Shown one piece after another: positions 1,338 through 47,565 of a stretch of 64,000 nucleotides of DNA. Under the pieces are notes generated by a model. The model saw nothing but the letters and a program-made list of their open reading frames with translations. It was not told where the DNA came from and did no database searches. Within the stretch, counting starts at the first letter, position 1. The number at the start of each line of letters is the position of its first letter. Where the stretch lies: the NCBI RefSeq assembly GCF_013167455.1, contig NZ_CP038328.1, one strand, 5' to 3'. Made by a program: the position numbers and the translations under genes. This DNA comes from Escherichia coli O157:H7 (lineage in GTDB: Bacteria; Pseudomonadota; Gammaproteobacteria; Enterobacterales; Enterobacteriaceae).

Positions 1338-1730
<393 letters not shown>

Positions 1731-5901: not shown

Positions 5902-6246
5902 GTGACTTCATTACAACTCTCAATCGTCCATCGACTGCCGCAGAACTATCGCTGGTCTGCTGGTTTCGCAGGTTCGAAGGTTGAACCGATTCCGCAAAAT
6001 GGACCGTGCGGTGACAACAGCCTGGTGGCGCTTAAATTGCTTAGCCCGGATGGTGATAATGCATGGTCGGTGATGTATAAACTAAGCCAGGCGTTAGGCG
6101 ACATCGAAGTTCCATGTTCGGTGCTGGAGTGTGAAGGTGAGCCGTGCCTGTTTGTAAATCGCCAGGACGAGTTTGCTGCAACATGCCGATTGAAAAATTT
6201 TGGTGTGGCAATTGCCGAACCCTTTTCAAACTACAATCCTTTTTAA
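5902..6246 (+). CDS. yejG: Uncharacterised protein YejG
   Basis: 114-aa [21 protein letters not shown]... recognised as YejG. Confidence 0.85.
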
Positions 6247-6249
6247 GCG

Positions 6250-7839
6250 TCAGCTCAACGCCAGTAGCTGACGCGTATACTCCTGCTGCGGTGTGGCAAA
6301 CACGCGCGCGCACGGTCCTTGTTCCACTACTTCCCCTTGTCGCAGTACGATAACCTGATGACATAACGCGCGGACAACGTGCAAATCGTGGCTGATAAAC
6401 AAATAGGCCAGTTGATGCTTTTGTTGCAATGATTTCAATAGCGTCAATATTTGCGCCTGTACCGTTTTGTCGAGTGATGATGTCGGTTCATCAAGTATGA
6501 TCAGCGAGGGCTTAAGAATTAATGCCCTGGCAATCGCAATACGTTGTCGCTGACCACCAGAGAACTCCGCCGGATAACGGTGGCGTGTTTCAGGATCTAA
6601 TCCCACTTCATGCATCACGTCTATCACTTGTTGTTCGCGTTGTGCGGCAGAAAGCGTCGGCTGGTGAACCCGTAAGCCTTCCTCAATAATCTGCAAAACG
6701 TTGAGTCGTGGGTTGAGCGAGGAGTTTGGATCCTGAAATACCACCTGAATGCGATGACGAATAGGTAACAGCTGGCGGCGATTTAAATTTTGCAGTGGCT
6801 GACCGTCAAAGATGATGCTGCCCTGAGAATTAATCAGTCGCAGCAGCGCCAGTCCCGTCGTGCTTTTCCCGGAACCGGACTCGCCCACTAAACCCAGTGT
6901 TTCACCCGCTCGTAGCGTAAAACTGATGTTTTTCACCACCACATTATGATCCACAATGCGCTTCAAAATCCCTTTGCGAATGGGGAAGGCAACCTGAAGC
7001 TGTTCAACATCCAGCAACGTTGAGGCAGGTTCTGGCAACGGCACTGGATCGCCTGACGGTTCACTGTTGAGTAGCTTTTGTGTGTAAGGATGAGTGGGTG
7101 AGGCAAATAGCGTAGCGGCGTAATTTTGCTCGACACAGCGACCGTTTTGCATTACCGCCACGCGGTGGGCCAGTTTTCTGACAATGCTGAGGTTATGAGT
7201 AATAAACAGCATGCCCATATTCAACTCGCCTTGCAGTTCGCGCAACAGCTGTAAAATCTGCGCCTGGACAGAGACGTCCAGTGCGGTGGTCGGTTCATCG
7301 GCAATTAATAATTCCGGTCGCGTTAACAGCGCCATCGCAATCATCACCCGCTGGCGTTCGCCGCCGGAGAGCTGATGCGGATAATCTGTCAGCCGTTTTG
7401 CCGCCTGGCGGATACCAACGCGATCAAGGCAGTTAAGAATTTCGCCACGAGCCGCTTCCCGACGCATCCCGCGGTGGAGTGAAAGCACTTCATAAAGCTG
7501 TTTTTCCAGGGTATGCAATGGATTTAACGACACCATCGGCTCTTGAAAAATCATGGCGATCTTATTACCGCGTACACCGCGCAACGTTTGGTCGCTGGCA
7601 TGAAGCAGCGATTCGCCATGAAAACGAATATCGCCGGAGAGATATTCAACCGGCGGGGAAGGGAGCAGGCGTAAAATTGACAGCGCGGTAACGCTTTTGC
7701 CTGAACCTGACTCACCCACCAGCGCCAGCGTTTCGCCAGCCTCAATCTGTAGTGAAACATCATTGACTACTGTACGTACGGTTTGCTGATGGCGAAAACC
7801 CACCGACAAATCTTCAATCGCTAACAGAGTTTGCGTCAT
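6250..7839 (-). CDS. yejF: ABC transporter ATP-binding protein with duplicated ATPase domains (YejABEF peptide/microcin C uptake system)
   Basis: Two Walker A motifs (GESGSGKS twice) and two LSGG signature motifs; start placed at MTQTLLAIEDL (ATG 7837-7839) rather than the 545-aa ORF start. Confidence 0.9.
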   Translation of the reverse strand: MTQTLLAIEDLSVGFRHQQTVRTVVNDVSLQIEAGETLALVGESGSGKSVTALSILRLLPSPPVEYLSGDIRFHGESLLHASDQTLRGVRGNKIAMIFQEPMVSLNPLHTLEKQLYEVLSLHRGMRREAARGEILNCLDRVGIRQAAKRLTDYPHQLSGGERQRVMIAMALLTRPELLIADEPTTALDVSVQAQILQLLRELQGELNMGMLFITHNLSIVRKLAHRVAVMQNGRCVEQNYAATLFASPTHPYTQKLLNSEPSGDPVPLPEPASTLLDVEQLQVAFPIRKGILKRIVDHNVVVKNISFTLRAGETLGLVGESGSGKSTTGLALLRLINSQGSIIFDGQPLQNLNRRQLLPIRHRIQVVFQDPNSSLNPRLNVLQIIEEGLRVHQPTLSAAQREQQVIDVMHEVGLDPETRHRYPAEFSGGQRQRIAIARALILKPSLIILDEPTSSLDKTVQAQILTLLKSLQQKHQLAYLFISHDLHVVRALCHQVIVLRQGEVVEQGPCARVFATPQQEYTRQLLALS

Positions 7840-17895: not shown

Positions 17896-18117
17896 AGGAG
17901 TCATGTCTTAGTAACGATTAATTAACAATGACAGTGTAAAGTTATATGACAGCAATTGAAATTGGTCTGGATTGTTAATGCGATGAAGTGTGAGGGCGAT
18001 CAATCAACGAGTGAAAATTGAGGGCGTAAGGTGTTCAGGAAGCGCAAAATAGAAGATTGGTATAATAAATTAAAAAAGGGACAGCCTGAGCTATCCCTTT
18101 TCTGCATGCGGCTGAAG

Positions 18118-18690
18118 TTAGTCAGCACGCCCCATATAACGGCGTTCTTCGATATGGATACGAATTTTTTCGCCCGGGCTTAAGTATTCTGGTACCTGAA
18201 TCACCAGACCAGTGCTCAATGTCGCCGGTTTGTTACGGGCGCTGGCAGATGCCCCTTTGATGCCTGGTGCGGTTTCAACGATTTCCAGATCAACGGTCTG
18301 CGGCAGCTCAAGCGCCAGCAGTTGACCGTCCCAGGTCAGCACCTGCATGTCCGGCATGCCGCCCTCTGGCATAAACAGCAACTCTTCTTCAATCTGATCT
18401 TTGGTGAAGGTATACGGGGTATAGTCTTCTTTATCCATAAAGACATATTCGTTGCCATCGACATAGGAGAAGTCAACGTAACGGCGGGTCAGCGTCACGG
18501 TGTCAACGATATCATCTCCTTTGAAACGCTCTTCTACTTTCAGCCCGGTACGGACATCAGAAAAACGCATTTTGTACAGCGTAGCGGCACCGCGGGCAGT
18601 GGGCGACTGAATATCAATGTCCTTAACCAGCAGCAGTTTGCCGTTGTAATTCAGTACCATACCTTTTTTAATTTCGTTCGCTCTTGGCAT
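18118..18690 (-). CDS. yeiP: Elongation factor P-like protein (YeiP/EfpL)
   Basis: 190-aa product [25 protein letters not shown]...; the 275-aa track ORF is an N-terminal over-extension. Confidence 0.88.
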
Positions 18691-18844
18691 CGAAAAATTC
18701 CTGTAGTCGAAAATGTCAAAAATATCGCGACAAAGTACTCGCGACGAGCCTTTCGGGCAAGTGGTATTCGCACTTTTGCTGGTGCAAAAAAGGTGGTACT
18801 GTGCGCGCTCATCAATCCGGTGGTTAACCTTAAGAGAACAACGT

Positions 18845-19099
18845 ATGGAATGCCGTCCGGGTTGCGGGGCGTGTTGCACTGCCCCTTCAATTTCCAGCCC
18901 TATTCCCGGTATGCCAGATGGCAAGCCCGCCAATACGCCCTGCATTCAGCTTGATGAACAGCAACGCTGTAAAATTTTCACCTCGCCACTGCGGCCGAAA
19001 GTCTGTGCAGGCTTACAAGCCAGCGCTGAAATGTGCGGTAACTCGCGTCAGCAGGCAATGACCTGGCTTATCGATCTGGAAATGCTGACCGCGCCTTAA
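18845..19099 (+). CDS. yeiW: Small cysteine-rich protein YeiW (UPF0153)
   Basis: 84-aa product [15 protein letters not shown]...; track ORF over-extended upstream; 3' end overlaps convergent setB by 4 bp. Confidence 0.8.
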
Positions 19100-20277
19100 A
19101 CATCTTTAATCCGCAGTAAGCAAAACAGAGTGGCGATAATCATCACCATCGCAAACCAGAACACAGCGTGATAATTCCAGATCTCGGCGACGATGCCCGC
19201 CACTGATCCCGCGATGATCCAGCCCACGCGCGACGTGTTGGTATAGAGCGTGGTGGCTGAACCTGCCTGACCGGGCATCAGATCCTGAAAATAGAGCATC
19301 CCGATACCGCCCAGAATGCCAATAAAAATAGCATTTAGCAGCTGCAAGCCCAACAGAATGACAGGAGAATGCGCCATCAGCATTCCTGCGTAAAAACAGA
19401 CGCCACCCACGGCAGCAACGCGCATTAAGAAACGCTTACCCAGACGTTTGGCGAAATATCCGGCAATCAACATGGTCGGGATTTCCAGCCCGGCGGCGGT
19501 CCCCATCATCACACCGGCCAGTTTCTCGGGAAGATGGAGTTCGTTGATAATAAATAGCGGCATGTTGATGATGTACAGGCTGTTCGAGCCCCACATCAAT
19601 GTACAAATGACAAACAGCAGCAGCGTATCGCGACGGTTACGGCGCGGCGCTTCAACCGTGCCGGTCGCCAGCGGAAGCTCTTTTTGCATCGACGGTAAAA
19701 ACAGCCACACCATCACGCCGCAAACAATAAATGCTACCGCTGCGCTCAGATACATTACCGTAAAGCTGAAACCCATCGCTAAGGCATAAGCCAGCGGTGG
19801 GCCAATGACCCATGCCAGTGAAACCTGAGCGCGTAAAAAAGAGCTGAACATCACCGCCTCACGTCCGGTTTTGTCGGCATGTTCACGGGCAAGGGCAAAC
19901 ATTTGCGGGTTAGCGGTCGAGCCAAAGCTGCTAAGAAAGACGCCAACGAATAGCAAAACAAAGTAGTTGCGATTCCAGGCAAAAAGGGTGCAGGCCAGCA
20001 CGCCTAACAGGCAGCAAAAGACAATCAGCGATTTGCGATCGCCGCGCTTATCAGAGCGCCCGGCGAGAAACTGACTCACCAGAACCCCAATGACAGCGCT
20101 GCCGGTAAAGAAGAATCCCACCATCGCCGGACGGGCATGTACTTCATCGGTAAGAAAAATACTGAGTGTCGGGGTTTGCAGAGCGCCCGCAATACCGGTG
20201 AGAAAGGCAACGATTAAAAACGCCGTCGAGGTCAGGTCAAACGATTTCGCGCTGGAGACTGCGGGGGAGTTATGCAT
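19096..20277 (-). CDS. setB: Sugar efflux MFS transporter SetB
   Basis: 393-aa 12-[33 protein letters not shown]... Confidence 0.9.
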
Positions 20278-20542: not shown

Positions 20543-20559
20543 CTTGAAACGTTTCAGCG
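20543..20559 (+). promoter_or_regulatory. Putative Cra (FruR) operator in the fruBKA promoter
   Basis: cttgaaacgtttcagcg matches the palindromic Cra consensus (GCTGAAACGTTTCA) about 90 bp upstream of fruB. Confidence 0.6.
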
Positions 20560-20609
20560 CGATCTTGTCTTTAACCCTAAGCCAGGTTGGCGCTTTTTTT
20601 CTCATAGAA

Positions 20610-37318: not shown

Positions 37319-39298
37319 ATGTTTAGGTTGAACCCTTTCGTACGGGTCGGGCTGTGTTTGTCCGCTATTTCTTGTGCATGGCCTGTGTTAGCGGTCGATG
37401 ACGATGGCGAAACGATGGTTGTCACTGCATCTTCCGTTGAACAAAACCTTAAAGATGCACCCGCCAGTATCAGCGTCATTACCCAGGAAGACCTGCAGCG
37501 AAAACCGGTACAGAATCTGAAGGATGTCCTCAAAGAAGTGCCTGGCGTACAACTGACGAACGAAGGGGATAACCGTAAGGGCGTTAGTATTCGTGGTCTG
37601 GACAGCAGCTACACCCTGATTCTTGTCGACGGTAAACGCGTTAACTCCCGCAATGCCGTCTTCCGCCACAATGATTTCGATCTGAACTGGATCCCGGTCG
37701 ATTCCATCGAACGTATTGAAGTGGTCCGTGGCCCGATGTCGTCGCTGTACGGTTCCGATGCGCTCGGCGGTGTAGTGAATATCATCACCAAAAAAATCGG
37801 TCAGAAATGGTCGGGTACCGTTACCGTCGATACCACCATTCAGGAACATCGCGATCGCGGTGATACCTATAACGGTCAGTTCTTTACCAGTGGACCATTA
37901 ATTGATGGTGTGCTGGGAATGAAAGCTTACGGCAGCCTGGCAAAACGTGAAAAGGATGACCCGCAAAACTCAACGACCACCGATACCGGAGAAACGCCGC
38001 GTATTGAAGGATTCTCCAGCCGCGACGGCAATGTCGAATTTGCCTGGACACCGAATCAAAATCACGATTTTACTGCCGGATACGGTTTCGACCGTCAGGA
38101 TCGTGATTCCGACTCGCTGGACAAAAACCGCCTGGAACGCCAGAACTACTCCGTCAGCCATAATGGGCGTTGGGATTACGGCACCAGCGAACTGAAATAC
38201 TACGGTGAGAAAGTCGAGAACAAAAACCCTGGCAACAGCAGCCCGATAACTTCCGAAAGCAATACGGTCGACGGCAAATACACGTTGCCGCTGACGGCGA
38301 TTAATCAGTTTCTCACGGTTGGCGGTGAATGGCGTCACGACAAACTTAGCGATGCGGTGAACCTGACCGGGGGAACCAGCTCCAAAACGTCTGCCAGCCA
38401 GTACGCGCTGTTTGTGGAAGATGAATGGCGGATCTTCGAGCCGCTGGCGCTGACGACCGGCGTGCGTATGGACGATCACGAAACCTACGGTGAACACTGG
38501 AGTCCGCGTGCCTACCTGGTTTATAACGCCACCGACACCGTAACGGTGAAAGGGGGCTGGGCGACGGCATTTAAAGCACCTTCTCTGTTGCAACTTAGCC
38601 CTGACTGGACGAGCAATTCCTGCCGTGGCGCATGTAAGATTGTGGGTAGCCCGGATCTGAAACCAGAAACCAGCGAAAGTTGGGAGCTGGGGCTTTACTA
38701 CATGGGTGAAGAAGGCTGGCTGGAAGGGGTTGAATCCAGCGTTACCGTTTTCCGTAACGATGTGAAAGATCGTATCAGCATCAGCCGTACGTCTGACGTC
38801 AATGCTGCACCGGGCTACCAAAACTTTGTTGGTTTTACAGCGAACGGTGTGCCGGTATTTAGCTACTACAACGTTAACAAAGCACGTATTCAGGGCGTGG
38901 AAACCGAGCTGAAAATTCCGTTCAACGATGAATGGAAACTGTCACTCAACTACACCTACAACGATGGTCGTGATGTCAGCAACGGCGAAAACAAACCGCT
39001 ATCCGATCTGCCGTTCCATACCGCTAACGGTACGCTGGACTGGAAACCGCTGGCGCGGGAAGACTGGTCATTCTATGTTTCTGGTCACTATACCGGGCAG
39101 AAACGAGCCGACAGCGCGACGGCTAAAACACCGGGCGGTTATACCATCTGGAATACCGGCGCGGCCTGGCAGGTGACTAAAGACGTCAAACTGCGCGCAG
39201 GCGTGCTGAACCTTGGCGACAAGGATCTCAGTCGTGACGACTACAGCTATAACGAAGACGGACGTCGTTACTTTATGGCAGTGGATTATCGCTTCTGA
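37319..39298 (+). CDS. cirA: TonB-dependent catecholate siderophore/colicin I receptor
   Basis: 659-aa ORF with signal peptide, TonB box (ETMVVTAS) and C-terminal terminal Phe (YRF). Confidence 0.93.
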
Positions 39299-39329
39299 TG
39301 AGAAGATGCCCGGCGAACCGGGCGGACTT

Positions 39330-40199
<870 letters not shown>

Positions 40200-47383: not shown

Positions 47384-47565
47384 GTGGTTTTGTAGGCCGG
47401 ATAAGGCGTTCACGCCGCATCCGGCGACAGGAGCCAAATGCCGGATGCAACGCTGGCGCGTTTTATCCGGCCTGCAATGAGCTCAACATACTGATTTGTA
47501 TGGTTTTGTAGGCCGGATAAGGCGTTCAAGCCGCATCCGGCGACAGGAACCAAATGCCGGATGCG
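47384..47565. repeat. BIME-type cluster: two near-identical ~64-bp REP-containing units spaced ~117 bp apart
   Basis: tggttttgtaggccggataaggcgttca(c/a)gccgcatccggcgacagga(g/a)ccaaatgccggatgc occurs at 47384-47448 and 47501-47564. Confidence 0.75.

Follow-up and report, generated by a model that had tools for sequence, protein, structure and literature searches.

The convergent genes yeiW and setB of Escherichia coli O157:H7 share their stop codons in a single tetramer: geometry, transcript ends and conservation of a 4-nt overlap

Genes and geometry of the junction

Within the window, by which we mean the whole analysed stretch of 64,000 nucleotides of Escherichia coli O157:H7 DNA, the genes yeiW and setB run towards each other and meet in the tetramer TTAA (Table 1). 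The sequence from 19090 to 19099 reads cgcgccTTAA, the stop codon of yeiW being the TAA at 19097-19099 of the plus strand and that of setB the TAA which constitutes the reverse complement of 19096-19098. The list of open reading frames contains setB with the boundaries given in Table 1 together with one plus-strand frame ending at 19099, and RefSeq, in its annotation of an identical genome of the O157 type, places both genes, in window coordinates, at the tabulated positions. In K-12 MG1655, where setB extends over 2263863..2265044 and yeiW over 2265041..2265295, the overlap likewise amounts to four nucleotides. The 4-bp overlap of two convergent genes proposed by the first-pass annotation is thus borne out by the sequence, the list of reading frames, RefSeq and the K-12 annotation alike. 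Bases 18600-19600 show 100% identity to several O157 genomes and are found in 5,413 of the 5,426 complete E. coli genomes.

Table 1. Features at and around the yeiW/setB junction, in window coordinates
Feature	Position	Strand	Basis
yeiP CDS; EF-P-like, three Pfam EFP domains, co-directional with setB and lying beyond the antisense passage through yeiW	18118..18690	-	annotation, Pfam
Palindrome TCGCGA-N8-TCGCGA, then ATATTTTT, in the yeiW-yeiP spacer	18724..18745	-	scan, fold
yeiW CDS; 84 aa, CxxCxxCC cysteine-cluster protein of the YkgJ family	18845..19099	+	RefSeq, Pfam, orthologues
GC-rich hairpin GGGGCGTGTTGCACTGCCCC (18866-18885) plus TTCA, yeiW codons 8-15	18866..18889	+	scan, fold, Term-seq
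setB read-through, first ~200 nt, antisense to yeiW	18895..19095	-	G-rich
Shared tetramer TTAA, general form YTAR	19096..19099	stop codons of both strands inside	sequence
setB CDS; 393 aa, MFS sugar efflux transporter	19096..20277	-	RefSeq, Pfam, conserved C-terminus
yeiW read-through, first ~140 nt, antisense to the setB 3' end; candidate Rho loading region	19100..19240	+	C-rich, G-poor

YeiW matches the Pfam family PF03692 (CxxCxxCC) with E=7e-8, which is above the gathering score, and SetB matches MFS_1 with E=5e-44. The yeiW orthologues of 80 species, which reach as far as Betaproteobacteria, encode 84 amino acids with the same N- and C-termini at identities of 65-99%. Across genera YeiW ends in a conserved LTAP directly before its stop, and SetB ends in RIKDV before its own, the latter across Enterobacteriaceae. 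The junction accordingly presents itself as a convergent 4-nt YTAR overlap in every respect, i.e. two genes arranged tail to tail on opposite strands, a single tetramer common to both, and reading frames which are genuine up to their stops. Position 1 of the tetramer serves both as the wobble base of the final proline codon of YeiW and as the third base of the setB stop, and position 4 both as the third base of the yeiW stop and as the wobble base of the last SetB codon. Since these two positions are wobble bases or third bases of stop codons, the overlap constrains almost nothing in either protein.

Terminators, transcript ends and read-through RNA

As the first-pass annotation had stated, the stops leave no room for terminators between them: the four bases are common to both stops and our scan finds none there. 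Beyond the stops, the scan for terminator-like sites reveals no hairpin followed by a T-run on the plus strand between 19100 and 20700, and none on the minus strand from 19096 up to the yeiW-yeiP spacer. Rfam at gathering thresholds yields no RNA family at the yeiW/setB locus, and RNAalifold applied to 38 orthologous junctions returns 0 conserved pairs across the junction. Folding of the junction gives a small and weak palindrome, UUAAA-GAUG-UUUAA, which is not followed by a U-run and which we regard as a by-product because its inner stem is made by the conserved codons of IKDV and the subsequent stop. A terminator embedded in the junction, or a bidirectional one, is ruled out by the scan, by the weak folds devoid of a U-run and by the RNAalifold result. 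As no terminator is present between or across the stops, any full-length mRNA of either gene has to continue as untranslated antisense RNA into the respective partner. The assertion that full-length transcripts necessarily extend antisense into the neighbouring gene consequently stands as a structural premise, given a scan without terminator and a junction without conserved structure.

Bidirectional intrinsic terminators, which need an intergenic hairpin placed between an A-tract and a U-tract, solve the same problem of ending two converging units in little space. A candidate within the window (39298-39330) belongs to the convergent genes cirA (+) and yeiG (-), which lie 31 nt apart; it is a GC hairpin (CCGCCCGGTTCGCCGGGC) with a Term-seq 3' end classed as primary with respect to yeiG and as antisense with respect to cirA. 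In contrast, the yeiW/setB junction offers neither intergenic space nor such a hairpin on either strand.

The two read-through RNAs are of different base composition. Determined in 80-nt windows, the C/G ratio within the first 140 nt of the yeiW read-through amounts to 1.3-1.75, corresponding to the 75th-95th percentile of the window (median 1.0, 90% quantile 1.53, 95% quantile 1.75), and the GC skew is negative. The setB read-through displays C/G ratios of 0.5-1.15 over some 200 nt; a surplus of C is not reached before the vicinity of the yeiW 5' end and the adjoining spacer. Judged by base composition, the yeiW read-through would be rut-like and that of setB a poor Rho substrate, and we infer a diffuse, Rho-dependent termination of the read-through RNAs. 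The locus resembles known cases of Rho suppressing untranslated or antisense read-through in that the RNA past the stop is untranslated and antisense and, for yeiW, C-rich and G-poor like a rut site. It differs from them in that the bicyclomycin data, whose coverage here is very low, identify no Rho region of significance.

Upstream of yeiP, between 18700 and 18760 of the minus strand, the spacer contains a block (CTTGCCTGAAA...CGCGAGTA-TTTG-CGCGATATTTT) which is strongly conserved in about 45 enterobacterial species and in which a CGCGA/TCGCG palindrome precedes a T-run. Conceivable roles of this block are that of a promoter of yeiP (TTGCCT-17-TAnnTT), that of an operator, or that of a hairpin or attenuator in the 5' UTR. 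The palindrome together with its T-run is the first terminator-like site which a setB read-through would meet; a strong terminator-like site follows after yeiP at 18103..18072. The palindrome is, however, also present in some species which have no setB at the locus (L009, L025). A role of the 18745..18724 hairpin as a dedicated terminator of setB is hence not supported, as it is equally conserved without setB and lies within a promoter-like block; for these reasons, and owing to its location upstream of yeiP, it more likely belongs to the promoter or 5' UTR of yeiP.

Inside yeiW, a published Term-seq 3' end falls on a GC-rich hairpin which has a calculated folding energy of -13.1 kcal/mol and precedes TTCAATTT. 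Adams et al. 2021 (PMC7815308) locate this end at K-12 2265251/2265250, which corresponds to window positions 18889/18890 and to a distance of 44-45 nt from the yeiW start codon. They assign to it an intrinsic terminator score of 6.97 and a Rho score of 1.36, the latter classified as "No", i.e. not significant, at very low coverage. In their supplementary file, which contains one tab per growth condition, yeiW appears three times, and the table records no regulatory element for this gene. With the exception of the yeiW-internal end, the Term-seq data of the same study list neither a 3' end nor a region of Rho termination within K-12 2264400-2265599. The supplements of SMRT-Cappable-seq contain no entry for the yeiW/setB junction, and direct RNA-seq coverage on the strand of the yeiW end is low (26-27 reads per 800 nt). 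Owing to this internal end, setB may lie out of reach for an unquantified fraction of the yeiW transcripts.

The stem of this hairpin derives from the codons of the invariant CGACCTAP motif, among which Gly-Ala...Ala-Pro dictate four of the five pairs. Complementarity of the remaining, free wobble pair is observed in 38 of 80 species compared to 33±3 expected, with p ~0.09 in a calculation which ignores phylogeny. The notion of a selected attenuator at position +44 of yeiW is thus not supported, its pairs being codon-forced and the free wobble pair showing no significant covariation. We treat the hairpin as a presumable by-product at the level of E. coli.

Several further elements of the window may be recorded here. 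The fruB leader contains, at about 20558-20601 of the plus strand, a hairpin (GCGCGAUCUUG...CCAGGUUGGCGC) followed by U7, which ends at 20601, i.e. 44 nt before the fruB start codon, and whose position agrees with that of an "orphan" Term-seq 3' end with a high count, K-12 2263539. Its flanks, TGAAACGTTTCA and GCTGAATCGTTTCA, we take to be Cra/FruR operator-like, and the hairpin may act on fruBKA as a terminator or attenuator within the leader. Shimada et al. 2017 (PMC5493296) report an in vitro binding peak of the sigma-28 (RpoF) holoenzyme within setB, at K-12 U00096.2 2262454, as well as an RpoH peak in the fruB-setB spacer. The only two Rfam matches in the window which score above the gathering threshold are the REP-derived nucleoid-associated RNA naRNA4 at 47395-47472 (+), which follows mglC, and the L25 ribosomal-protein leader at 1644-1669 (-) upstream of rplY.

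Convergent overlaps as a class and conservation of the tetramer

Overlaps of four nucleotides with the sequence CTAA, TTAA, CTAG or TTAG constitute the modal convergent overlap in prokaryotes (Lillo & Krakauer 2007, PMC2174442). For E. coli the same study counts 58 convergent overlaps, with a predicted rho-independent terminator in only 20% of the genes concerned, and Huvet & Stumpf 2014 (PMC4161906) arrive at 75 convergent overlapping pairs. At the transcript level, 276 of 370 convergent operons were found to overlap, the mean length of the overlap being 286 nt (Conway et al. 2014, PMC4161252). The yeiW/setB junction matches the prokaryotic YTAR stop-stop overlaps described in the former two studies (PMC2174442, PMC4161906) in that the stops of two opposite-strand coding sequences fall into one tetramer of the modal length. 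Most genes of this class lack a predicted intrinsic terminator and its origin is ascribed to stop-codon mutation and geometry; we find no essential difference between the class and yeiW/setB. The seven convergent pairs present in the first 50 kb of the window are separated by gaps of 138, 3, -4, 70, 55, 31 and 242 nt, the value of -4 belonging to yeiW/setB. The arrangement is therefore no statistical surprise.

Scanning one genome per species, we obtained 80 yeiW loci, in 51 of which a setB homologue is convergent to yeiW. The overlap measures exactly 4 nt in 41 of these 51 species, which include Escherichia, Citrobacter, Kluyvera, Enterobacter, Kosakonia, Buttiauxella, Cedecea and others and extend out to Rahnella. 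All four allowed tetramers occur among them (TTAA 20, CTAA 18, CTAG 2 and TTAG 1), position 1 being T or C in 41 of 41. Evidence for an additional constraint on the wobble base of the terminal proline codon is nevertheless weak: the pyrimidine is universal where the overlap exists, yet purines are rare in its absence, too (3 of 22).

The species deviating from the 4-nt overlap reveal what happens when one of the stops is lost or displaced. In Entomohabitans (L042:3228-3255) yeiW ends with TGA, and because the complement of TGA provides no stop in the setB frame, SetB reads on and becomes 8 codons longer, which results in an overlap of -28. In an Enterobacterales MAG (L054:3258-3270) it is YeiW which is extended, by 5 codons, the overlap being -13. 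Gaps of 2-47 nt are present in Klebsiella, one Citrobacter, Pantoea and others, and in Edaphovirga cremea (L076:3256-3577) yeiW and setB are separated by a spacer of 322 nt in which a repeat of some 150 nt (GGGCTACTGCGCGTCGCC...CTCATGGACTTT...) occurs twice; a repetitive element has apparently been inserted there. SetB of Rahnella carries a different C-terminal tail which is about 14 aa longer and still stops on the complement of the yeiW stop. In many Erwiniaceae and in all betaproteobacterial matches, finally, an 84-aa YeiW is found without setB at the same position. As YeiW retains its length without a neighbouring setB, the position of the yeiW stop is ancestral and independent of setB. 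The use of four tetramers and the extension by a few codons after the loss of a stop fit a near-neutral, self-locking stop geometry which requires no selection for the overlap, so that the phylogenetic pattern can be explained without selection for coupling.

Interpretation of the overlap

ExcludonFinder (NAR 2025, PMC12288877) lists setB-yeiW among 165 convergent excludons detected in at least 50% of 58 MG1655 transcriptomes, and reports that excludon pairs as a class are less often co-expressed in single cells. Like the convergent excludons described so far (PMC12288877, PMC4161252), setB and yeiW are opposite-strand neighbours whose transcript 3' ends overlap. The listing as such adds little because overlapping coding sequences count as transcript overlap whenever both genes are expressed. 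A functional excludon implies demonstrated mutual repression, whereas what has been reported for setB-yeiW is transcript overlap only; neither interference nor RNase III nor phenotype data on the pair were found in the literature. Tables of p19-captured dsRNA contain no setB or yeiW entry among the rows listed, the expression of both genes being low. A yeiW promoter fusion is induced 4.3-fold by vanillin (PMC5291986). The convergent pair yejG (+, ending at 6246) and yejF (-, ending at 6250), whose coding sequences are separated by 3 nt without room for a terminator, is on the ExcludonFinder list as well.

We consider the junction to be an ordinary and ancient shared-stop overlap with obligatory antisense read-through at a low level, probably ended by Rho, and without a dedicated regulatory role, and estimate the probability of this reading at about 0.8. 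According to it, the stop codon of each gene would be held on the complement of the stop codon of its partner, within YTAR. Such a geometry should be self-locking, since any insertion or deletion, and most substitutions within the tetramer, would lengthen or frameshift one of the two proteins; being in addition nearly cost-free, it would allow the overlap to persist without needing a function. The natural variants match this prediction, as seen from the 8 additional codons of SetB in L042, the 5 additional codons of YeiW in L054 and the longer tail in Rahnella. Full-length transcripts of both genes would continue as untranslated antisense RNA and would most likely be ended diffusely by Rho. 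Within about 140 nt, the yeiW read-through would run into a stretch rich in C and poor in G, and the read-through of setB, G-rich across yeiW, would probably cross the whole 255-nt gene and come to its end in the yeiW-yeiP spacer or close to it. Under standard conditions the expression of both genes is weak, and part of the yeiW transcripts would end at the hairpin 44 nt into the reading frame. In view of weak expression and early yeiW ends, transcriptional interference or antisense pairing would be expected as a minor by-product rather than as a designed switch. There is no sign of a dedicated regulatory device in the overlap, and any regulatory coupling of yeiW and setB, which the first-pass annotation had considered, is probably weak.

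Alternatively, the pair might be a functional convergent excludon in which the read-through of each gene represses its partner via collision of RNA polymerases or cleavage of the duplex by RNase III, so that YeiW, a stress-induced cysteine-cluster protein in this scenario, and SetB, acting in sugar efflux, would be mutually exclusive and the overlap would be conserved for that purpose. The entry among the 165 listed excludons, the reduced single-cell co-expression of the class, the retention of the overlap in 41 of 51 species, the inducible yeiW promoter and a setB read-through which, as a poor Rho substrate, would cover all of yeiW are consistent with such a function. We nevertheless regard it as unlikely. 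Beside the fact that no experiment on the pair was found and that the listing carries little weight, expression is low on both strands, neither gene is among the p19 dsRNA rows listed, and part of the yeiW transcription ends 44 nt into the reading frame. Moreover, both genes are retained in lineages where they lie 2-47 nt or 322 nt apart or overlap more extensively, many species keep yeiW without setB at the same position, and a functional link between YeiW and SetB is not known. Decidedly improbable, in our opinion, is the more specific notion that selection maintains the overlap as a toggle, in which yeiW, induced by stress (vanillin, oxidative or metal stress), would lower SetB, and a Rho-resistant setB read-through would silence yeiW. 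The by-product reading has to face some arguments of the same kind: the single-cell exclusion observed at the level of the class leaves room for some mutual exclusion at setB-yeiW; survival of the overlap through several families of Enterobacterales, from Escherichia to Rahnella, could reflect selection; the involvement of Rho is deduced from base composition, the published Rho score referring to the internal 3' end and not to the read-through; and, as the yeiW promoter is inducible, interference could matter under other conditions.

The conserved order setB(-), yeiW(+), yeiP(-) together with the lack of a terminator-like site on the minus strand within yeiW and a G-rich read-through RNA on which Rho should load poorly would also suit a noncontiguous operon, in which setB and yeiP are co-transcribed across yeiW and one long transcript encodes both proteins and silences yeiW. 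This is very improbable, given that setB-yeiW-yeiP is absent from the noncontiguous operons, just three in number, which ExcludonFinder gives for E. coli (PMC12288877), that a hairpin with T-run precedes yeiP in the spacer, that the conserved -35-like/-10-like block of the spacer suggests a promoter of its own for yeiP, and that yeiW and yeiP stay adjacent in many species without setB there. Practically negligible is the probability that the overlap is an artefact of annotation, i.e. that one of the stops, or even yeiW as a small gene, is spurious. Although yeiW encodes just 84 aa, entered the K-12 annotation late (b4502) and is contained in a longer mechanical reading frame (18713..19099), its product matches PF03692 above the gathering score and shows 65-99% identity, with unchanged length and termini, across 80 species. 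The RIKDV terminus of SetB is conserved as well, and the Term-seq 3' end and the vanillin-inducible promoter attest to the transcription of yeiW.

With an ordinary shared-stop overlap as the preferred reading, the significance of the locus is small: the class is known, and a published genome-wide list already includes setB-yeiW. The overlap itself is already annotated throughout the E. coli genomes, in RefSeq for O157 strains as for K-12, its class is textbook knowledge and the pair has been catalogued as a transcript overlap. What is added here is the phylogenetic depth of the overlap, the usage of the four tetramers and the behaviour of the two genes when one stop is lost. Were the toggle to prove true, it would represent a conserved two-gene switch in Enterobacterales. 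As it stands, the junction is of modest value as a clean and phylogenetically deep example of a YTAR overlap which drifts among four tetramers and in which the loss of a stop costs a few extra codons, and setB-yeiW could serve as a low-expression test case for interference caused by convergent overlaps of coding sequences without terminators.
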